64,000 bases of DNA from Deltaproteobacteria bacterium. GTDB lineage: Bacteria > Desulfobacterota > Desulfobaccia > Desulfobaccales > 0-14-0-80-60-11. Each line of letters opens with the position of its first letter. Positions within the stretch are counted from its first letter, which is position 1. The notes beneath the pieces are model-generated. The model saw nothing but the letters and a program-made list of their open reading frames with translations, was not told the origin of the DNA and made no database searches. Position numbers and translations under genes: made by a program. The DNA lies in NCBI GenBank assembly GCA_030018495.1, contig JASEFS010000018.1:7591-71590 (forward strand), given 5' to 3'. Shown one piece after another: positions 2,575 to 13,014 of the stretch.

Positions 2575-2868
2575 TTACGATGAGTCTTTGGCATCATCAT
2601 CGACGATGGTTTCCCATTCCTCTCGAAAAGAATCCTTGTCAGTGAATGTCAAAGCAACAGTTTCCTCTGACTCGGGAGGCATATAATCCGATTCTTTCTG
2701 CAATACCAGCTTGACTGCCGGGATGTGCTCGGACTTGTCCTCTTGTCTCATTTCCTCAGCGCGCACATCTTCGGTGCCGGTTGAGTCCCAGGGAATCCTG
2801 CGGCCTCTGAGCTTCTGGATAAGGGCATAGGCCAGCAAGCCCACATAAATGATTACGACCAGGTCCAT
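2575..2868 (-). CDS. small membrane-anchored acidic protein (97 aa), first gene after fluoride riboswitch 1
   Basis: The ORF track starts at 2925, but that extension overlaps the riboswitch terminator. ATG at 2868 (MDLVVIIYVGLL...) is preceded by a GGGAGG SD. One N-terminal TM helix, then an acidic tail. Confidence 0.55.
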   Translation of the reverse strand: MDLVVIIYVGLLAYALIQKLRGRRIPWDSTGTEDVRAEEMRQEDKSEHIPAVKLVLQKESDYMPPESEETVALTFTDKDSFREEWETIVDDDAKDSS

Positions 2869-2902: not shown

Positions 2903-3001
2903 AATAAAAAAACCCCTGTCCCCACCGGTAGTGAGAACAGGAGTCATCAGCTCGAGGCGCAGTTCGGCCGGTACGTTACCCGCCGGGCGGACTCCATCAC
3001 C
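2903..3001 (-). promoter_or_regulatory. fluoride riboswitch 1 (crcB motif, variant with enlarged internal region) plus competing terminator
   Basis: Minus strand: GGUGAUGGAGUCCGCC ... GAAC ... GCUGAUGACUCCUG. The P1 loop GGAGUC is complementary to downstream GACUCC (pseudoknot). CUCCUGUUCUCAC-UACCG-GUGGGGACAGGGG-UUUUUUU forms a terminator whose 5' arm reuses the pseudoknot strand. Confidence 0.7.
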
Positions 3002-3009
3002 TGGTTGAT

Positions 3010-3037
3010 TTTATAAACCCAGGCACCGGAATGTCAA
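3010..3037 (-). promoter_or_regulatory. sigma70-like promoter for riboswitch 1 operon
   Basis: Minus strand TTGACA (3037-3032), 16 nt, TATAAA (3015-3010), 8 nt before the first aptamer G at 3001. Confidence 0.6.
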
Positions 3038-3100: not shown

Positions 3101-3110
3101 AAAATTAATC

Positions 3111-3196
3111 GGCAATGAGGTCTGCCGCAAACCGCCCCGCTTGCTCAGGGCGGGGATGATGACTTCTGTCCAACGGGCAGAAGTCATTTTTTTTCT
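3111..3196 (+). promoter_or_regulatory. fluoride riboswitch 2 (crcB motif) plus competing terminator
   Basis: GGCAAUGAGGUCUGCC-GCAAAC-CGCCCCGC(UUGCUCA)GGGCGGGG-AUGAUGACUUCUG. Loop GAGGUC pairs with GACUUC. Terminator AUGACUUCUG-UCCAACGGG-CAGAAGUCAU followed by U8 overlaps the pseudoknot strand. Confidence 0.85.
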
Positions 3197-3225
3197 GCCG
3201 CTCACTTTAAAAAGGAGGGACCGCC

Positions 3226-3510
3226 ATGAAGGAGTTTGATGAAATCATTCGGGAAAAGGGGCTGCCCCGCGTGGGGCAGACGGTGCGCAGCAAGAAGTAC
3301 GGCACTCTTTGGCGAGTCATGGAAAAAAGAGAAATATGGCAGTCCATCGCCGATGACCCCCAAACCGGGGAACCGCGTATGATACCGGCTATTTTTTTAT
3401 CTTACTGGAAAATGCAGGAGGGCGGCCAGCCCGGTACCGGAAAAGTCATGGGATTTACCTATACCCTCTATGACAACACCTTTGCGACGCACTGGGAGGT
3501 TGTGCCCTGA
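3226..3510 (+). CDS. conserved small protein of unknown function (94 aa), paralog A, directly behind fluoride riboswitch 2
   Basis: AAGGAGGG SD 6 nt upstream of the ATG. About 72 of 94 residues are identical to the 9770..10057 product by manual alignment. Confidence 0.8.
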   Translation: MKEFDEIIREKGLPRVGQTVRSKKYGTLWRVMEKREIWQSIADDPQTGEPRMIPAIFLSYWKMQEGGQPGTGKVMGFTYTLYDNTFATHWEVVP

Positions 3511-3958: not shown

Positions 3959-5740
3959 ATGGCTAAGTATGACCCCACTAAAATGGAAGACTGGCAAATC
4001 GGTGAGCTCGCCGAAGAGGAGCTGGATTTCAACCGGCAATGTGACAAAATCGGCATCCTGCCCGAAGAGCGCATCCCCATGGGTCGGAAAATCGGCAAAG
4101 TTGACTACATGGCCATCCTGGAGCGCCTCAAGGACAGACCGGACGGCTATTATATCGATATCACCGCCATCACCCCTACTCCCCTGGGAGAGGGTAAGAC
4201 CGTGACCACCATGGGGTTGATTGAAGGCCTGGGCAAGCGGGGCGTGAACGTGGGCGGTGCCATCCGCCAGCCCTCGGGCGGCCCCACCATGAACATCAAG
4301 GGCACCGCGGCGGGCAGCGGCATAGCGCTCTTGATCCCGATGACCGACTTCTCCCTGGGACTCACCGGCGACATCAACGCCATCATGATCGCCAACAATT
4401 TAGCCATGGTGGCCCTGACCTCCCGGCTGCAGCACGAGTTCAATTACGATGATGAGCAACTGGCCAAAATCCCTCTCAAACGCTTGAACATCGATCCCAG
4501 AAGGGTGGAGATGAAATGGTGCTTTGACCTGTGCGCCCAGTCGCTGCGCAACATCACCATCGGCCGGGGCAGCAAGATGGACGGCTACATGATGGACTCC
4601 GGCTTCGTCATCGCGGTGGCCTCGGAAGTGATGGCCATCCTCTCCATGTTCAAAGACCTGCCGGACCTGCGCAAGAGGTTGGGCGAAATCACCGTGGCCT
4701 ATGACAAGAAGGGCAACCCGATTACCACCGAGGACCTGGAGTGCGCCGGGGCCATGACCGCCTGGATGTTTAAGACCATCAACCCCACTCTGTGCGCCAC
4801 CGTGGAATTGCAGCCGGTCTTCGTGCATGCCGGGCCCTTCGGCAACATCGCGGTGGCCCAGTCTTCCATCGTCGCCTGCCGGACCGGTCTGAAGCTCTTT
4901 GACTACCATTGCACTGAGTCCGGCTTCGGCTGCGACCTGGGCTTCGAGAAATTCTGGAACATCAAATGCCGGGAAAGCGGGCTCAAACCCAACGTAGCGG
5001 TGCTTACCAGCTCCATCCGGGCCCTCAAGCACCACGGGGTCAACGCCGGGGCTCTGCCCGTCCGGCCGGGAAAGCCCATTCCCCAGGAGTATTACACCTC
5101 CACCCCCGAGACTTTGGCCTGGCTGGAGGACGGCCTCAAGAACCTGGTCCACAACATCAATATCGTCAAGCAGTCCGGCATCAAGCCGGTGATCTCCATC
5201 AACCGCTTCCCCACCGATACCGATGAGGAGGTCAAGATGGTCAAACGGTGCGCCGAGGCCGAAGGGGTCCGGGCCGCGGAGGGCAACTACTGGCGCTATG
5301 GGGGTGAGGGAGCCCTGGAATTGGCTGACGCGGTCATCGACGCCTGCAAAGAGAAGGTGGACTTCCGGTTCCTTTATCCTACGGAGATGCCGCTGCGCCA
5401 AAAGATTGAAACCATCGCCACCAAAGTGTATGGAGCCAGCGGAGTAGTTTATACGCCCGAAGCTGAGGCCAAGGCGAAGGCTTTTGAAGCCGATCCCAAG
5501 TTCAAAGATTATCACGTAATGATGGTGAAGACGCATCTGTCGTTGACCCACGATCCCACCCGGAAGGGCGTCCCCAAGGGCTGGGACCTGGCGGTCCGGG
5601 ACTTTCTGCTGTACAGCGGCGCCAAGTACATCTGTCCATGTACCGGCACCATCTCACTTATGCCCGGCACCAGCTCCAACCCGGCCTTCCGGAGGGTGGA
5701 CGTGAATCTCGAGACCGGCAAACCTTACGGCCTGTTCTAA
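3959..5740 (+). CDS. fhs: formate--tetrahydrofolate ligase (divergent FTHFS family member)
   Basis: 593 aa. Contains [10 protein letters not shown](V)TT P-loop, [37 protein letters not shown] and a C-terminal GLF, collinear with canonical FTHFS. The glycine-rich loop is altered ([18 protein letters not shown]). Confidence 0.85.
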
Positions 5741-5813: not shown

Positions 5814-5906
5814 GGTGGGCCTATCATACCTAATCCGGCAAGAAAACTTTGGAGGCCTGCCCGGGGTAACTCACTTCTAATTACAAGCACTTGGCCGCCT
5901 GCATAA

Positions 5907-6437
5907 CTAAATTTTGGCTTGGGTGCGCTCATAAACTTTTCTTGCAAAATCATCAAGCATCTTTTCACAAATTTTTATCTTCTCCAAAGCGGTTTTCCTA
6001 AGAGGAGCCTTAATTACATCCCGTTTTTCCACTTTTCTGAACCACTGCTTTAATTTTTCCAGTTCTTCCTCGTTTTCCTCGACTTCCGCGAAGATGAAGT
6101 TCTGTCTTTGAATTTCATATTCCATCTCTTTAAAATAAGCTTCACACTTGTCTATAATTTCCTTATACTCTTCATTTCTGGACTCGGTAAAAGCTTCGAC
6201 GATGAGTTCTTCTTGCTCTTTACTGAGAATTTTTCCCACAATTAACAAGCCCATTCCTTTGAATCCTTTAATATTTTCGATAAGCTTATTGAATTCATTG
6301 ACTCGTTCTGAAGAATACGGGGCCACCCATACCGTCTGGTAGTTGACGGCTCCAATTTTTCTCAACTGCCGCCAAACAAAGACCCTGGCTTTGGAAGGGG
6401 TTGTCGGCAAACTATACGAAAAGAACAGCCATTTCAT
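5907..6437 (-). CDS. ChrB N-terminal-domain-like protein (176 aa)
   Basis: N-terminus MKWLFFSYSLPTTPSKARVFVWRQLRKIGAV resembles the ChrB_N signature (SLPt..s..R...WR.L...GA). The gene is markedly AT-richer than its neighbours. Confidence 0.55.
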   Translation of the reverse strand: MKWLFFSYSLPTTPSKARVFVWRQLRKIGAVNYQTVWVAPYSSERVNEFNKLIENIKGFKGMGLLIVGKILSKEQEELIVEAFTESRNEEYKEIIDKCEAYFKEMEYEIQRQNFIFAEVEENEEELEKLKQWFRKVEKRDVIKAPLRKTALEKIKICEKMLDDFARKVYERTQAKI

Positions 6438-6563
6438 GGAAATACGCCGCCTACCCCCCAGAATGCGAAGTCCCGTCTCCGGGTGGCGTCGGTCGGAAGG
6501 AAATCCGGCAGGGAGCCACCCGACTACTCACTGAGTCCATGCGATTGCGGCATTATATCATCT

Positions 6564-7529
6564 TCAAATCTTCAGGCCCAACATGACTGTTCCGACCACG
6601 AACAGAACATAAAGGGCCATGAGGGTAATGCCCACCCAGCGAGGCGTATGGCCCCGCCAAACGATTATCAGCAAAATGAGCCAACTCAAGGCCACGGCGG
6701 GGAAAAAATAATCCAAAGCCACCGCTTCCACCGTCAGGGGGCGGATCAGGGCGCAAATTCCCAAGGTAAACAGCAGTTGAAAAAAAGAACTGCCCGCGAC
6801 GTTTCCGATAACCACTTCCGGGTGTCCCTTTTGGGCCGGGATGATGGCTTCCACCAATTCCACGGAATTGGCGGCGATGGCCAGCAGGGTCAAACCGAGA
6901 ATGGTCTCCGCGATGCCGGTCCAGATTAGGACCGCTTTCACCCCCTTGATCACCAGGAGAGCGCCCACCACCAAGCCGATGAGCCCGCCCACCAACATGA
7001 GGGGGAAGTGCCAGGCCGGCTCCCGGATGATCTTCTCCACCTCTTCTTCCGCTTCCTCAATCTCCTCCTTGGCAGCCCTGGTTCGCCGCAAGTCGGTGAT
7101 CAGGTAAGCCATGAAAGCCCCGTAAACTCCCAGGACAATAAAGCCATCGGGACGGCTGATCTCCCCGTCAAAGGCCAAAAGGAAAACCAGCAGGAGGACG
7201 CCGCCCAGCATCCAAATGTATTTCAGGGGGAAATCAGGGTGTCTGATGGGAAAAAGGGCCGCCGCCGAGCCCAGGGCGAGAAATATTAAAAAGATAACCG
7301 TGCCCAGGATACTGCCGAAGGCCAGGGCCGTCAGGTGCTGGTAAGCGCCGATGACTGCCGGGGCAAATTCCTCCAGGTCGATGCTGATGATCAGCATGGC
7401 CAGAACAAACGGCGTTACTGCCAAACGGGCGGCCAGGCCGACCAACCCCTCTACCAGGTACTTGGCCGCGAAGATGAGGATCAACACACCGACCAGCAAT
7501 GAGCCGATATTTATATAAAGATTTTCCAC
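6564..7529 (-). CDS. Ca2+/cation antiporter family protein (CaCA, YrbG-like)
   Basis: 321 aa, two hydrophobic halves separated by an acidic loop (EEIEEAEEEVE). Alpha-repeat-like GSILGTVIF and GNVAGSSFF motifs. GTG start with a GGAGG SD. Confidence 0.75.
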   Translation of the reverse strand: MENLYINIGSLLVGVLILIFAAKYLVEGLVGLAARLAVTPFVLAMLIISIDLEEFAPAVIGAYQHLTALAFGSILGTVIFLIFLALGSAAALFPIRHPDFPLKYIWMLGGVLLLVFLLAFDGEISRPDGFIVLGVYGAFMAYLITDLRRTRAAKEEIEEAEEEVEKIIREPAWHFPLMLVGGLIGLVVGALLVIKGVKAVLIWTGIAETILGLTLLAIAANSVELVEAIIPAQKGHPEVVIGNVAGSSFFQLLFTLGICALIRPLTVEAVALDYFFPAVALSWLILLIIVWRGHTPRWVGITLMALYVLFVVGTVMLGLKI

Positions 7530-7751: not shown

Positions 7752-7780
7752 TTGACAATTGGGCAGGAATATTTTAATTT
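7752..7780 (+). promoter_or_regulatory. sigma70-like promoter for riboswitch 3 operon
   Basis: TTGACA (7752-7757), 17 nt, TAATTT (7775-7780), 10 nt before the aptamer. Shares AATTGACAA with the riboswitch 2 promoter. Confidence 0.6.
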
Positions 7781-7790
7781 CATCTACAAA

Positions 7791-7873
7791 GGTGATGAAG
7801 TCCGCCATAACCGCCCTGCCTTCCCAGGCGGGGATGATGACTTCTGTCCAGTAGCCGGGCAGAAGTTTTTTTT
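7791..7873 (+). promoter_or_regulatory. fluoride riboswitch 3 (crcB motif) plus competing terminator
   Basis: GGUGAUGAAGUCCGCC-AUAAC-CGCCCUGCC(UUCCC)AGGCGGGG-AUGAUGACUUCUG. Loop GAAGUC is perfectly complementary to GACUUC. Terminator ACUUCUGUCC-AGUAGCC-GGGCAGAAGU followed by U8. Confidence 0.85.
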
Positions 7874-7895
7874 CGCCCGGTCCCAGGAGGACCAT

Positions 7896-9650
7896 ATGGG
7901 AACCTTTCAACAACTCCAGGAGGCCCTGGAGAGGCAGCTTACCCAATTGGCGCGCCTGCCGGAATTTCAGGGTCCCGGCTTGCCCCGGATTTTGGAGAAA
8001 CTGCGACAGAACCGCTTTCATCTGGTGGTGCTGGGGGCTTTCAAGCGGGGCAAAAGCACCCTGATCAACGCCCTGCTGGGCGACCCCATCCTGCCCACCG
8101 CCATCATCCCCCTGACTTCGGTGGTCACCATCCTCACCTATGGGGAGAGTCTGACCATCGAGGTGCGCTTCCATAACGGCCAGCGCCGGCAGATTTCCCA
8201 AGCCGAACTGGTGGATTACATAACCGAGAAGGGCAATCCCGGCAACCGCAAGGGAGTTCAGGAAGTCGAGATTACCTACCCTTCCGACTACCTCAAAGAA
8301 GGAGTGCGGATCATCGACACTCCCGGGGTGGGCTCGGTTTACAGCCATAACACCGACGTGGCTTATAATTACCTGCCCCAAGTGGACGCCGCCATCTTCG
8401 TGGTTACCGTGGACCCGCCCCTGTCCGCGGCGGAGCAGGAGTTTTTGCAGGATATCAGGGAGTTTGTCCACAAGATCTTTTTTGTCCTCAACAAGATTGA
8501 TTACGTGGAGGCCGCGGAGCGGCAGGAAGCCCTGGATTTCACCTCCCAGGTCCTGGCGGCCAACCTGGCAGCCTGCCCGGTGGCAATCTTTCCCCTGTCC
8601 GCCAAGATGGCCCTGGACGGCAAGACCAATGGCCACCCGGAACTCCTGGAGGCGAGCCTCCTGCCCCAATTCGAGGAGCACTTGCGCCAGTTCCTCTACC
8701 GGGAAAAGGGGCGGGTGCTGCTGATTTCCTGCGTCAGCGGGGCCTTGAAGGCCATCACCGACTCCACCCTGGCCCTCAAGGTGGAACGCCAGGCCAGCGG
8801 CCTGCCCTTGAAGGAACTGGAAGAAAAAATCGCCCGCTTTGATCTGGAATTGCAAGGACTGGAAAAAGAGCGGGAGATGTCCCTGCTCCTGCTGGACGGC
8901 CGGGTCAAAGGCGTGGTGGCGCAAGTGGACGCCGACCTGGAGGCTTTTAGAAAAGAAACCACCGCCCGTCTGCGCCGGGAGGTGGAGGCGACCTTCCAGC
9001 AAAAAAGCCGGGCCGCTCTGGACCTGCGGAAAGAGATGGAAGAATTCCTCTTCGCGGCGCTCAGAGATGTCTTCACCACTTGGCGGCGCCAGGAGATCGA
9101 GAAGCTTTCCCAGATATTGGCCGAGACCCACCAGGACTTCGCCGGCCGTATCAACGCCATCCTGGAGCGGCTGACCCAGTTGACCGCCCGCATCTTCGAT
9201 TTTTCCTTGCGGGGCTTTGCGGTGGAGGAAGCCTTCACGGATTTGCGGCAATTCTGGTTCAGGTTTAAGGAAGACCCGGTGGGGCTGGAAATACTGCAGA
9301 TGACCGTTACTTCCCTCTTGCCCAGGGCCCTGACCAAGGGGTTGCTCCTGAAAAAGCTGTTGGAAAATGTCACGGAGTTGGTGGACAAGCACTGCGGGCG
9401 GCTGCGCTATGACTTTCACCAGCGCCTCCAGGAGATTGCCCGGGACTTCCGCCAGACCTGGCTCGCCAGAATTGACGACACCACCCGGAGCATCCGCCAG
9501 GCCCTGGAGCGGGCCCGGGCTCAAAAGCAGACCAGCGCCCAGGCCGTCGCGGCCCGGGCGGGACAACTGGACCAGAGCCTGGCTGAAATCCTGAAGGCCG
9601 AAGCGCAATTGTTAGCCTTGAAGGAGCGCATTGAAGCGACCGTGCATTAA
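7896..9650 (+). CDS. dynamin-family GTPase (bacterial dynamin-like protein, 584 aa)
   Basis: GAFKRGKST (G1), IIDTPG (G3), LNKID (G4), then a long helical/coiled-coil C-terminal half. ATG at 7896 follows an AGGAGG SD; the track extension from 7752 overlaps the riboswitch. Confidence 0.8.
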   Translation: MGTFQQLQEALERQLTQLARLPEFQGPGLPRILEKLRQNRFHLVVLGAFKRGKSTLINALLGDPILPTAIIPLTSVVTILTYGESLTIEVRFHNGQRRQISQAELVDYITEKGNPGNRKGVQEVEITYPSDYLKEGVRIIDTPGVGSVYSHNTDVAYNYLPQVDAAIFVVTVDPPLSAAEQEFLQDIREFVHKIFFVLNKIDYVEAAERQEALDFTSQVLAANLAACPVAIFPLSAKMALDGKTNGHPELLEASLLPQFEEHLRQFLYREKGRVLLISCVSGALKAITDSTLALKVERQASGLPLKELEEKIARFDLELQGLEKEREMSLLLLDGRVKGVVAQVDADLEAFRKETTARLRREVEATFQQKSRAALDLRKEMEEFLFAALRDVFTTWRRQEIEKLSQILAETHQDFAGRINAILERLTQLTARIFDFSLRGFAVEEAFTDLRQFWFRFKEDPVGLEILQMTVTSLLPRALTKGLLLKKLLENVTELVDKHCGRLRYDFHQRLQEIARDFRQTWLARIDDTTRSIRQALERARAQKQTSAQAVAARAGQLDQSLAEILKAEAQLLALKERIEATVH

Positions 9651-9769
9651 CAGCCGCTGGTCCATCCGAATTAACTTGCATCGGTTGAATATGGACTTAA
9701 CATAATTGAGGCGGGGGACGCTGAATATGCTTTTGTCAAAAGATCAATCTTGCTCAAGAGGAGGCGGCA

Positions 9770-10057
9770 ATGAAGGAGTATGACGAGATCATCCGGCAAA
9801 AGGGTCTGCCCCGCGTGGGACAGACGGTGCGCAGCAAAAAGTACGGTACTTTGTGGCGCGTCATGGAGAAAAAGGAGATTTGGCGCAACATCGATCCCGA
9901 CCCCCAAACCGGCGAACCCCGCATGGTCCCGGCCATCTACCTCCTTTACTGGAAGGTTCAGGAAGGAACCCCGCCCGGGGTAGGTAAAATGATGGGCTAC
10001 GAATACACCCTGTACGACAACACCTTTGCCTTAAACTGGGATATCGTCCAAGATTAG
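9770..10057 (+). CDS. conserved small protein of unknown function (95 aa), paralog B
   Basis: GAGGAGG SD; about three quarters identical to the 3226..3510 product. Confidence 0.8.
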   Translation: MKEYDEIIRQKGLPRVGQTVRSKKYGTLWRVMEKKEIWRNIDPDPQTGEPRMVPAIYLLYWKVQEGTPPGVGKMMGYEYTLYDNTFALNWDIVQD

Positions 10058-10068
10058 GCACCTGCCAC

Positions 10069-10106
10069 ACCCGGATTGGGGAGTATTCCGATCCGGGTTT
10101 TCTTTA
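10069..10106 (+). terminator. Rho-independent terminator after paralog B
   Basis: ACCCGGAT-(14 nt)-ATCCGGGT followed by TTTTCTTTAAATTT. Confidence 0.65.
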
Positions 10107-10150: not shown

Positions 10151-10786
10151 ATGACCCAAATTATCCTGGTGCGCCACGGCCAAACGCCCTGGAACAAGGA
10201 CAAGATTTTTCGAGGCTCCAAAGACATCCCCTTGAACGACCAGGGGCAAGAGGAAGCCCGCCTGGCCGGGGAATGGCTCAAAGGTGAGACCATTCATGCG
10301 GTTTATACTTCGCCTCTTTCCCGCTCCCGGGATACAGCCCTGGCCATTGCCCGACACCACGGCCTTCAAGTCACGGATTTGCCGGGTCTGAGCGATCTCT
10401 GCTATGGTGATTGGGAAGGTCTGCCCTTAACCGAGGTCAAAGTGAAATATGCTGACCTTTACCGCCAATGGGAGACAGCTCCCCACACAGTGCGCTTCCC
10501 TGGGGGTGAAACTCTGGAGGAGTTGCGCAGCCGCGCCATGGCTGCGGTAAATGAAGTAGTTCAACGACACCCCGGCCAGGTTGTCCTGCTTTCGGCTCAT
10601 CGCGCCGTCAACAAAGTCTTGATCGCCGCTCTCATCGGCCTGGACAATTCCCACTTCTGGCGCATCGGCCAGGATACTACTGCAGTCAACCGTTTTCACC
10701 TGGTCGGCGATGTCTGGCACATCATGTCGATAAACGATGCCTGCCACCTGCGCGGGATGCAACGCGGCGAGTACGTGGATTTTTGA
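10151..10786 (+). CDS. histidine phosphatase family protein (phosphoglycerate mutase-like)
   Basis: N-terminal ILVRHGQTPWN (RHG catalytic motif), later LSAHRAV. ATG at 10151. Confidence 0.8.
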   Translation: MTQIILVRHGQTPWNKDKIFRGSKDIPLNDQGQEEARLAGEWLKGETIHAVYTSPLSRSRDTALAIARHHGLQVTDLPGLSDLCYGDWEGLPLTEVKVKYADLYRQWETAPHTVRFPGGETLEELRSRAMAAVNEVVQRHPGQVVLLSAHRAVNKVLIAALIGLDNSHFWRIGQDTTAVNRFHLVGDVWHIMSINDACHLRGMQRGEYVDF

Positions 10787-10873: not shown

Positions 10874-11290
10874 ATGAGATTTTATTGTCCCCGATGCTGG
10901 CAGGATTTTGACAAGGACTTGTCTCGCTGCCCTTACTGCGGCCTTGATATTCACGGATTCTGGAAGTCAAAAGATTACGTGGAAAAATTGATCGTCGCCT
11001 TAAACCATCCGGAACCGGAAACTCCCATCCGGGCGGCGTGGCTTTTGGGAGAACTCAAGGACCCCCGGGCAGTTGAGCCGTTAATCAGGTTGATAAAATA
11101 TACTGAAGATGTGTACATTGCCCAGGCCGCAGTTGAGGCTTTGGGGAAATTTGAAACACCCGAGTCCCTGCATTTCCTGGACACTTTGGTTCATCACCCG
11201 GTCAAAATGGTCAGAGACACGGTGCTGCAAATCCTGGCCTCGCGAAATCGACACCGCCCCTCAACTGAGAAAGGAAAGGAAAATGTATGA
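10874..11290 (+). CDS. zinc-ribbon plus HEAT-repeat protein (138 aa)
   Basis: CPRC...CPYC at the N-terminus, followed by PBS-lyase/HEAT-like repeats ([29 protein letters not shown]). Confidence 0.65.
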
Positions 11291-12558
11291 GTAATAAAAT
11301 CACTTCCGTCCAGGCCATGGAAATCCTTGATTCCCGCGGCAACCCGACGCTTCGTGCTTATGTAACTCTGGACAACGGCATTTCTGCCTCTGCCTCCGTG
11401 CCTTCCGGCGCTTCCACCGGCGAGAACGAAGCCGTGGAATTGCGGGATGGAGATAAAAAGCGCTATGGCGGCAAAGGCGTGTTGAGAGCCGTAGAAAACG
11501 TCAACACGGTTATCGCCTCCCGCCTCATTGGCCATGACCCCAGTCGCCAGGCCGAAATCGACCGCCTCCTGATCGAACTGGATGGCACCTCCAATAAAAG
11601 CAACTTGGGCGCCAACGCTATTCTGGGGGTGTCCATGGCGGTGGCCCGGGCCGCGGCGCAGTCCGCGCAGATCCCTCTTTACCAATATCTCGGTGGGGCT
11701 GGGGCAAGAAGATTGCCGGTCCCCTGCATGAACATCGTCAACGGCGGCCAACATGCCGACAACAGTGTGGACATCCAGGAATTCATGGCTGTTCCCATCG
11801 GCGCGCCTTCTTTCCGGGAGGGACTGCGTTACGTGGCGGAAACCTTCCATACCCTTAAGGGAATTTTGAAGGCTCGGGGCCTGGCGACCAGCGTTGGTGA
11901 CGAGGGCGGCTTCGCGCCGAATTTTTCCAGCAACGAGGATGCCATAGAAACGATCCTGCAGGCGATTGACAAGGCAGGCTACAAGCCCGGGGAGCAGATT
12001 GCCATTGCCTTGGACAGCGCCGCGAGTTCCTTTGCGCTGGATCGGGTCGGGGAGTACGACCTGAAGCGCTCCCGAGCCGGAAGAAAGACCAGCAGTGAGC
12101 TTATTGCTATGGCCGGCGAATGGCTCGAGAAATACCCCATCGTTCTCTGGGAAGACCCGTTGGCGGAAGGGGATTGGGAGGGATTTAAGCAGTTTACGGC
12201 TAAATATGGCGGGAAAATCGAAGTTGTCGGCGACGACATCTTTGTCACCAATACAAAATACATAGCCAGGGGGATCAAAGAAGGCACCGCGAATTCGGCG
12301 CTGATCAAGCTGAACCAGATCGGCACCGTAACTGAAACGATCGAAGCAGTGCGCATGTGCCGTGAGGCGGGTTGGCGCTATTTCCTCTCGCATCGGTCCG
12401 GAGAGACGGAAGACACCTTTCTGGCGGATTTTGCCGTCGCCATGGATGGGGGGCACCTCAAGACCGGCTCGGCAAGCCGCAGCGAGCGGATCGCCAAATA
12501 CAACCGCTTGTTGGAAATCGAGCAGGAGATTGGGAAAGAAGCTTTGTTTTACTGGTGA
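11287..12558 (+). CDS. eno: enolase (phosphopyruvate hydratase)
   Basis: 423 aa. [30 protein letters not shown] and [20 protein letters not shown] motifs. The ATG overlaps the upstream stop (ATGA). Confidence 0.95.
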
Positions 12559-12793
12559 TCGCTTTCTTTAGAATACAAACAAAGCGCTGCATCGGACGGC
12601 CGGGCAAAATCCTGAATGATGCTTCGGGGCCATTGGAGGCTTCATAAAACCTTGCCAGCCTCCCGCAGATATGGGAAAATGGACGCAAGGCGGGATATGA
12701 TCGAGGAGGAACCTTCTATACCGGCCCTCCGTAAACCGTCTGTGGCTGATAATGAATAAATGAATACATCTGCTAAAACAAGGAGTTAATCAG

Positions 12794-12835
12794 GGAGAAT
12801 GCGGGTTGGATTCCCGCGCCTCCACCATTTTTCTT
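12794..12835 (+). terminator. hairpin plus T-run (terminator candidate, tRNA-minihelix-like)
   Basis: GGAG-AAT-GCGGG-TTGGATT-CCCGC-G-CCTCC-ACCA-TTTTTCTT. Confidence 0.4.
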
Positions 12836-13014
12836 CCAAATCCTTCCAACAGAAAATTTGCTTCTCATAATCTACTGGCGGCTCGGGATTTATTGCAGCT
12901 TTTCACCATCTGGCCTTTATTTCAAACAGCAGTCGGAAGGAATCTATTTTTATCCAAATATGATATTATACGGTTCGAATCAGGATCCTTCCCAGAGGAC
13001 CGGAGGCGCGCTGG

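Follow-up and report, generated by a model that had tools for sequence, protein, structure and literature searches.

The stretch of DNA analysed here, 64,000 nucleotides of a Deltaproteobacteria bacterium from the Desulfobaccales (contig JASEFS010000018.1, positions 7,591 to 71,590, forward strand; referred to below, at its full length, as the window), carries three fluoride riboswitches, which we denote RS1, RS2 and RS3. The third of these lies on the + strand, directly upstream of a gene for a dynamin-like GTPase of 584 amino acids (aa). Our reading of this arrangement, which we consider very probably correct as a whole, is that RS3 is an ON switch, that it is an old and conserved ortholog of switches in related genomes, and that the GTPase subfamily encoded behind it forms part of the bacterial response to fluoride.

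Anatomy of the RS3 riboswitch

The whole window was scanned with the Rfam covariance models (cmscan, gathering threshold; 34 bits for the fluoride riboswitch family RF01734). The only matches in the 64 kb are three to RF01734, together spanning 4.9 kb. RS3 occupies positions 7782..7853 (+) and matches the full model (1-64 of 64) with a score of 45.4 bits and an E-value of 2.2e-9 over the window. An earlier note on this DNA, prepared from its letters, had placed a third fluoride riboswitch at 7752-7873, and this assignment is upheld; its transcription of 7791-7847 agrees with the window letters, and the covariance-model check that it proposed returns significant scores for RS3, RS2 and RS1 alike. 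Judged by its sequence, RS3 is a genuine, so far unannotated member of the fluoride riboswitch class and ordinary in kind.

The Rfam alignment defines a P1 helix (7791-7794/7803-7806) and an extended P3 helix of eight pairs (7813-7820/7827-7834). The loop of P1 pairs with the 3′ tail in a perfect pseudoknot of six Watson-Crick pairs, GAAGUC/GACUUC (7797-7802/7839-7844). As judged by the Rfam alignment, the crystallised Thermotoga petrophila fluoride aptamer (PDB code 4ENC) has its core in common with RS3, GGYGAUGRRGYYCGCC ... GCUGAUGRCYYCU. Covariation was assessed on an alignment of 24 orthologous leaders, using 500 shuffles and slid controls for comparison. Across these orthologs 91% of the cells in the aptamer helices are paired and seven pairs have changed on both sides, giving a score above those of all 500 shuffles and all slid controls. 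P3 supplies most of this signal, and P1 is nearly invariant. The pseudoknot is paired in 99% of cases and is invariant, and for this reason lends no covariation support.

A -35 box, TTGACA, can be read from the sequence at 7752..7757 (+), and most of the 24 leaders carry a TTGAC(A/T/G) box at an equal distance. Following a spacer of 17 nt, the candidate -10 box TAATTT (7775..7780, +) agrees with the consensus at three of six positions; the orthologs carry TATAAT-like or TAAAT-like boxes in this place. Transcription would accordingly start near 7787. On the 3′ side, the aptamer runs into a predicted intrinsic terminator (7839..7873, +), consisting of a hairpin of 11 pairs (7839-7867; -15.9 kcal/mol, z = -4.0) and a U8 tract (7866-7873). 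The 5′ arm of this hairpin contains the 3′ strand of the pseudoknot, and the sharing of 7839-7844 makes the terminator an expression platform that competes with the aptamer. The perfect pseudoknot and the overlapping terminator with U8 had both been described correctly in the earlier note. The terminator hairpin is kept in 24 of 24 orthologs, with 98.9% pairing, and RS1 and RS2 have terminators equivalent to it. A ribosome-binding site, AGGAGG (7885..7890, +), is located 5 nt upstream of the ATG of the GTPase gene.

The crcB switch of B. cereus belongs to the same aptamer class as RS3, with P1, P3 and an H-type pseudoknot, and in both switches the 3′ strand of the pseudoknot doubles as the 5′ arm of the intrinsic terminator. 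In the B. cereus switch, fluoride stabilises the pseudoknot, delays nucleation of the terminator and blocks propagation of the terminator stem (PMC10687018). Because the anatomy of RS3 is that of this experimentally dissected system, the same ON logic can be proposed for it. A sigma-70-type promoter (-35 at 7752) would begin the transcript a few bases upstream of the aptamer. When fluoride is absent, GACUUC at 7839-7844 would be captured by the hairpin 7839-7867 and RNA polymerase would halt at U8; once fluoride binds, as an F-/Mg2+ cluster, GAAGUC at 7797-7802 would hold this strand locked in the pseudoknot, the terminator could not nucleate, and transcription would proceed into the genes for the 584-aa GTPase and for a 95-aa protein, s95. 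By this analogy RS3 is most likely a transcriptional ON switch for these two genes. It differs from the B. cereus crcB switch in gating a dynamin-like GTPase instead of a fluoride exporter, in the extension of P3 to eight pairs with a G-A pair at the base, and in the presence of a conserved element past the U tract that is able to pair with the 3′ arm of the terminator.

This last element, GCCCGG, can form an alternative “post-terminator” hairpin (7854..7881, +; -16.2 kcal/mol) with CCGGGC at the top of the terminator 3′ arm, and the two hairpins are mutually exclusive. A GCCC(GG) element past the U tract is found in nearly all orthologs of both switch types (RS2 leader, ~3171-3203; leaders L002-L026, the L numbers designating the loci sampled in this study). 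In a column-based covariation count for this hairpin, T runs of variable length shift the MAFFT columns, and an alignment-free permutation test was used instead; it shows that the extension of the element covaries (p = 0.0004). The post-terminator hairpin forms too late to influence termination. A similar alternative hairpin, made from the downstream terminator stem, has been reported in read-through transcripts of ZTP riboswitches (PMC10687018).

The gene for s95 (9770..10057, +) is paralogous to the gene that comes first after RS2, and its product falls into no Pfam or NCBIfam family. In the gap of 119 nt that separates it from the GTPase gene (9651-9769), neither a terminator nor a promoter was detected, and the two genes securely belong to the RS3 unit. 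A remnant riboswitch before s95 was also considered and rejected, as the gap has no similarity to the RS2 and RS3 leaders beyond 8-mers and no Rfam match. Past s95 there is a terminator-like hairpin of 13 pairs with a weak T tract (10069..10098, +), a possible end of the unit. Continuation beyond this point is possible, and further read-through could then reach a histidine-phosphatase/phosphoglycerate-mutase-like gene (10151..10786, +; Pfam His_Phos_1, NCBIfam), a gene for a HEAT-repeat protein with an N-terminal zinc ribbon (10874..11290, +) and an enolase gene (11287..12558, +; Pfam Enolase_N/C). Enolase is a classical fluoride-inhibited enzyme.

The dynamin-like GTPase and its subfamily

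The first gene behind RS3 (7896..9650, +) encodes the 584-aa GTPase, in which the Pfam domain Dynamin_N is recognised with 103 bits (cut-off 27). Among solved structures, Nostoc BDLP (2j68, 5e-22) and M. smegmatis IniA (6j72, 7e-17, residues 38-414) are nearest in sequence. An AF2 model built on 44 family members (pLDDT 82) predicts a GTPase domain, long stalk helices (256-581) and a tip loop. The loop (439-474) is predicted with low confidence and carries a conserved aromatic motif (FWF, FYF or FYY) followed by LLP. When this model was submitted to Foldseek, BDLP and IniA ranked first (~1e-22). The G1-G4 motifs (GxFKRGKS, DTPG, NKxD) are invariant in the 44 family members, and a search for transmembrane segments in the 584 residues found none. 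Sequence and predicted fold thus both point to a BDLP/IniA-like bacterial dynamin-like protein.

IniA (606 aa, from the iniBAC operon) and Nostoc BDLP are the closest relatives by sequence as well as by predicted fold, in alignments over the full length, but share only 18-20% identity with the window protein. IniA, a stress-induced membrane-fission protein, resembles it in size and, going by the model of the window protein, in its architecture of a GTPase domain, a stalk of helices and a loop at the tip. Its operon responds to cell-wall inhibitors via a protein regulator, whereas the window GTPase is placed behind a fluoride riboswitch. Moreover, the latter lacks a paired second dynamin gene, its partner being the unrelated 95-aa protein.

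Apart from an identical sequence on one metagenomic contig, the close homologs of the GTPase (72-94% identity) are all labelled Desulfobacca or Desulfobaccales; the ortholog in Desulfobacca acetoxidans is 80% identical. One genome per species was scanned, which yielded 25 loci, 24 of them including upstream DNA. The survey of related genomes suggested in the earlier note gave a clear answer: a fluoride aptamer on the same strand lies upstream of the dynamin-like gene in 23 of these 24 loci, and in the same number the distance from the aptamer end to the GTPase start is 38-49 nt. The exception is L007, where the 5′ half of an aptamer (GGCGATGAAGTCCGCCTTTAACCGCCCC, 5227-5270) joins the GTPase gene at about codon 11, reflecting either a deletion of the 3′ half of the switch together with the gene start, or a misassembly. 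Among the 24 aligned leaders there is hardly any variation in the aptamer core, the pseudoknot or the terminator stem; P3 does vary, with compensatory changes. Since the encoded proteins have diverged to 72% identity, this near-invariance points to purifying selection on the RS3-type switch. The comparison marks RS3 as an old, orthologously conserved element of the Desulfobaccales. In most of the related loci, s95 follows the GTPase gene.

The association of the GTPase with fluoride switches extends far beyond this order. A HMMER search of 1.84 billion cluster representatives returned 2353 clusters at E < 1e-30. The Desulfobaccales GTPases constitute a single cluster at 50% identity, and beyond it the full-length proteins of comparable size share no more than 46% identity. 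For 13 cluster representatives (33-46% identity) the surrounding DNA was scanned with Rfam, and an RF01734 aptamer was found upstream on the same strand in 11 of them, directly before the GTPase gene in nine. Among the remaining arrangements, a 274-aa open reading frame (ORF) intervenes between switch and GTPase gene in L028, and the order in the Moorellales locus L037 is switch, Na+/H+ exchanger, universal stress protein (Usp), GTPase. In the two loci with no upstream aptamer, the GTPase is surrounded by enolase, pyrophosphatase, MutS, DUF190 or Usp genes: the Variovorax locus reads DUF6062, enolase, GTPase, switch, pyrophosphatase, enolase and a MutS-like gene, and in the last of the 13 the GTPase gene precedes a pair of DUF190 genes and Usp, the available DNA containing no switch. 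A hairpin with a U tract overlaps the aptamer 3′ end in nine of the nine distant leaders examined.

A metagenome scan with the family alignment added 60 distant loci (33-47% identity, at most 1.5 kb of upstream DNA). An aptamer is present no more than 250 nt upstream of the inferred start in 36 of these, and at 252-1236 nt in a further seven. Fluoride aptamers are absent from most of the scanned DNA, and their frequency before the GTPase gene is therefore far beyond chance. Besides the Desulfobaccales, the named sources are Moorellales, Variovorax sp. Sphag1AA (WP_184531466.1) and ‘bacterium BMS3Abin01’. A subfamily of ~580-aa proteins thus appears, from its gene surroundings, to be under fluoride-riboswitch control across at least three bacterial lineages, an arrangement from which it would follow that the GTPase is part of the fluoride response.

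Known members of the fluoride “super-regulon” include Fluc/CrcB, CLC-F, Na+/H+ antiporters, pyrophosphatase, enolase, formate hydrogen lyase, HAD, Usp and MutS-like proteins. Several genes of this kind are neighbours of the GTPase in the window and the related loci, namely those for Na+/H+ exchanger, Usp, enolase, pyrophosphatase, MutS_V and DUF190 proteins; the window itself contributes enolase, Na+/H+ exchanger and Usp. According to a 2024 review of fluoride resistance, the genes that accompany fluoride riboswitches code for exporters, Na+/H+ antiporters, pyrophosphatase, HAD phosphatases and enolase (PMC11139923), along with formate hydrogen lyase, chorismate mutase and divalent-cation transporters (PMC11139923). 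Neither ‘dynamin’ nor ‘GTPase’ occurs in its text (PMC11139923). Full-text searches found no paper for ‘dynamin-like’ with ‘crcB’, and for ‘bacterial dynamin’ with ‘fluoride’ the matches listed contained nothing on fluoride resistance or riboswitches. The association of dynamins with fluoride riboswitches is apparently unreported.

Origin of RS3 and alternative explanations

RS2 (3102..3175, +; 44.2 bits; terminator 3158-3188) gates the gene for the 94-aa protein s94 (3226-3510), a 96-aa gene (p96) and the gene for formate-tetrahydrofolate ligase (FTHFS). RS1 (2931..3010, -; 37.9 bits) is of a distinct type with an extra hairpin between P1 and P3, and gates a small membrane protein, a Na+/H+ exchanger and a Usp. 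RS2-type operons (switch, s94-like gene, p96, FTHFS) occur in six other genomes, in one of them without FTHFS, and the two operons RS-s94-p96-FTHFS and RS-GTPase-s95 are found together in seven genomes. RS3, taken as aptamer plus terminator, has identities of 0.74-0.85 to most of the orthologous GTPase-gene switches, and RS2 has 0.77-0.84 to RS2-type switches elsewhere; to each other they are 0.74 identical. Both types preserve their own terminator across genomes: the RS3 type is composed of GACUUCUGUCCA, a loop of ~3-9 nt, GGGCAGAAGU and a U tract, and the RS2 type has a longer stem with GAUGACUUCUGUCCA, a loop of 1-4 nt (mostly 3), GGGCAGAAGUCAU and a U tract.

The earlier note had regarded RS3 as the product of a recent duplication within this genome, by which the promoter-riboswitch module of RS2 was newly set before the dynamin-like gene. 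The common origin of the two switches stands, as they are the closest types in the lineage, with a mean identity of 0.72 between RS2-type and RS3-type switches against ~0.5-0.6 to the Na+/H+-antiporter type, which carries an extra hairpin and a GGAGUC pseudoknot. At the base of P3 both window copies show the variant GGGGAU, and their terminators have a common core, CTTCTGTCC/GGGCAGAAG. The 24-mer GGCGGGGATGATGACTTCTGTCCA is indeed identical in RS2 and RS3, but it consists largely of the aptamer 3′ half and the terminator 5′ arm, which hardly vary across the order in either type. The shared promoter sequence, AATTGACAA, is likewise present upstream of both, but is hardly more than a -35 consensus. 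A recent date is contradicted by the overall identity, only 76% over the 170 nt of the aligned leaders, which is lower than that to orthologs (up to 85%) and about equal to the divergence of the linked paralogs s94 and s95 (74% in DNA). The GTPase-gene switch, with its type-specific terminator features, is present in 23 of 24 related genomes, and fluoride switches also accompany GTPase relatives that are far more remote, making the pairing much older than this genome. In the seven genomes with both types, finally, the identity of RS2-type to RS3-type switches is 0.743 within and 0.740 between genomes; there is therefore no sign of recent copying, and gene conversion between RS2 and RS3 is ruled out on the same grounds. 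We thus consider a recent duplication extremely improbable. RS2 and RS3 are, as far as their sequences tell, old sister paralogs; the duplication predates the divergence of the sampled genomes, and the duplicated unit was probably an ancestral module of a switch plus a small gene. With RS3 an old ortholog and no fresh duplicate, the evolutionary account first given for it falls away. That account was right in assigning different first genes to the two switches (GTPase and s94); it missed that the second RS3 gene is a paralog of s94 (77% amino-acid identity), and that the two operons therefore share a gene family.

Several observations weigh against the reading of RS3 as an ON switch within a fluoride regulon that includes the GTPase. 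We infer fluoride binding and termination control by RS3 from homology. P3 begins with a G-A mismatch (G7813/A7834); the promoter was not called on the + strand by a promoter scan, its -10 box being weak; and the terminator stem is so nearly invariant in the 24 orthologs that it provides no covariation evidence. At the family level, 17 of the 60 metagenomic loci show no aptamer within their upstream DNA of at most 1.5 kb, and fluoride-switch control of the subfamily is frequent, not universal. How far the transcription unit reaches is uncertain, given the terminator-like hairpin behind s95. Lastly, it is not certain that the link between dynamins and fluoride riboswitches is new, since the full-text search that found no paper on it did not cover the original 2012 gene-association survey. 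The mismatch and the weak -10 box could be taken to mean that RS3 is decaying or non-responsive, with the mismatch leaving the terminator as a constitutive attenuator and GTPase expression independent of fluoride. Against such a decay, which we hold to be very improbable, stand the score well above the curated threshold over the full model, the near-invariance of core, pseudoknot and terminator over 24 genomes, and the recurrence of the same P3 variant in two orthologs (L003 and L004) and, in the form GGGAC, among RS2-type switches. A further possibility grants that the switch is real but makes the GTPase a mere passenger, the selected targets being the downstream phosphoglycerate-mutase-like and enolase genes. 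Enolase and phosphatases are established members of the fluoride regulon (PMC11139923), and in 12 of the 25 related loci His_Phos comes third, after the GTPase gene and s95. On the other hand, in distant lineages, where its neighbours are quite different, the GTPase gene often comes first after the switch (L027, L030, L032, L035, L036 and 36 of the 60 metagenomic loci), the window has the terminator-like hairpin between s95 and His_Phos, and an enolase gene near the GTPase is variable or absent in the related loci. We judge the passenger explanation very improbable, and retain the reading in which the GTPase is itself a target of the switch.

Genomic surroundings and possible role

Three aptamers within 4.9 kb had been described as an unusually dense concentration of fluoride control. 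The density is real, but is a trait of the lineage, clusters of two to five aptamers within about 6 kb being found in the related loci. The WY4.bin79 metagenome-assembled genome (L006) has five fluoride aptamers in 4 kb, among them the same-strand pairs 2203-2274 and 2686-2757 (+) and 5459-5528 and 5888-5958 (+). The members of these pairs are 360-410 nt apart, and no convincing ORF lies between them. According to a 2022 review, tandem arrangements had never been observed for a number of riboswitch classes, fluoride being one of them (PMC9481103, Table 3). RS1 and RS2 are divergent; only 91 nt separate their aptamers, and their promoters stand back to back (-35 boxes at 3037, -, and 3072, +). 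Divergent pairs of this kind were also observed in L002, L003, L011 and L022, and at many loci an antiporter-type switch is paired divergently with the GTPase-gene switch.

The 94/95-aa family has 541 matches, every name among them pointing to Desulfobaccales, and no Pfam or NCBIfam family covers it. An AF2 model of s95 (pLDDT 88) predicts an alpha+beta fold that has no match in the PDB. In three related genomes, an s95-like domain (41% identical) makes up the C-terminal ~80 residues of a 486-aa Na+/H+ antiporter (L011 1197-2657, -; L014 606-2066, -; L025 4185-5645, -), each time behind a fluoride riboswitch. Because the domain is fused to a switch-controlled antiporter, a functional link of the s95 family to cation/proton antiport is suggested. 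We are thus dealing with an orphan family that is encountered both free-standing behind fluoride switches and as part of a switch-controlled antiporter.

No Fluc/CrcB gene was found in the 64-kb window, despite its three switches, when it was searched by tblastn with Desulfobaccales CrcB sequences. In related genomes a CrcB gene is present in L006 (1411-1914, -), L010 (~5137-5418, -) and L024 (~12532-12843, -), with a fluoride switch of its own upstream in L006 and L010. In six genomes the RS2 operon ends with the FTHFS gene (window 3959-5740), and a HycD/NuoH-like membrane subunit is encoded behind other fluoride switches (L005 3482-4432, -; L010 2352-3302, -). These two genes tie fluoride sensing to formate metabolism, which fits the known association with formate hydrogen lyase. 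Divergent from the RS3 promoter region, with no riboswitch upstream, are genes for a ChrB_N-domain protein and a Na+/Ca2+-exchanger-family protein (window 5907-7529, -), a pair that recurs in L016 (357-1882, -); divalent-cation transporters have been reported as enriched near fluoride exporters. As in the window, a HEAT_2 gene lies 3′ of the GTPase gene at two further loci, L007 and the distant L029. In other phyla, the neighbours of the same GTPase subfamily include DUF6062, DUF190 pairs and a HEAT_2 protein (L032 298-1095; L038/L039 1-944; L040/L041 ~4415-5468; L029 4246-4722), and the DUF6062 gene in L032 is itself behind a fluoride switch. The DUF6062, DUF190 and HEAT_2 families may belong to the same response.

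What the GTPase might do under fluoride can be approached through its homologs. IniA and DynA are stress-induced dynamins that act on membranes, and because of the homology to these proteins we tentatively propose, at rather less than an even chance, that the task of the GTPase under HF/F- stress is to repair or remodel the cytoplasmic membrane. This would fit the account given in the 2024 review, according to which HF enters via the membrane, and membrane and envelope genes respond to fluoride (PMC11139923). One point complicates a simple repair function. Dynamin-type GTPases are trapped by metal fluorides together with GDP; fluoride may act directly on the GTPase protein as well.

The physiological roles of bacterial dynamin-like proteins are poorly defined, and riboswitch regulons have repeatedly served to assign functions to proteins, for example to CrcB and EriC-F. 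The occurrence of a dynamin-like subfamily in the fluoride riboswitch regulon across phyla, accompanied in the Desulfobaccales by an orphan 95-aa partner, is a stronger lead than the duplication originally claimed. It is conceivable, if not yet to be called probable, that this subfamily (~580 aa, at least 150 clusters at 50% identity) is an unrecognised, dedicated effector of the fluoride response, which fluoride riboswitches turn on and which acts on the membrane as HF/F- builds up. With the same reserve, the effector may range over Thermodesulfobacteriota, Moorellales, Variovorax and other lineages, its membrane action being repair, fission or vesiculation. If this is true, a bacterial dynamin would have a defined natural inducer, and membrane remodelling would join the known defences against fluoride.

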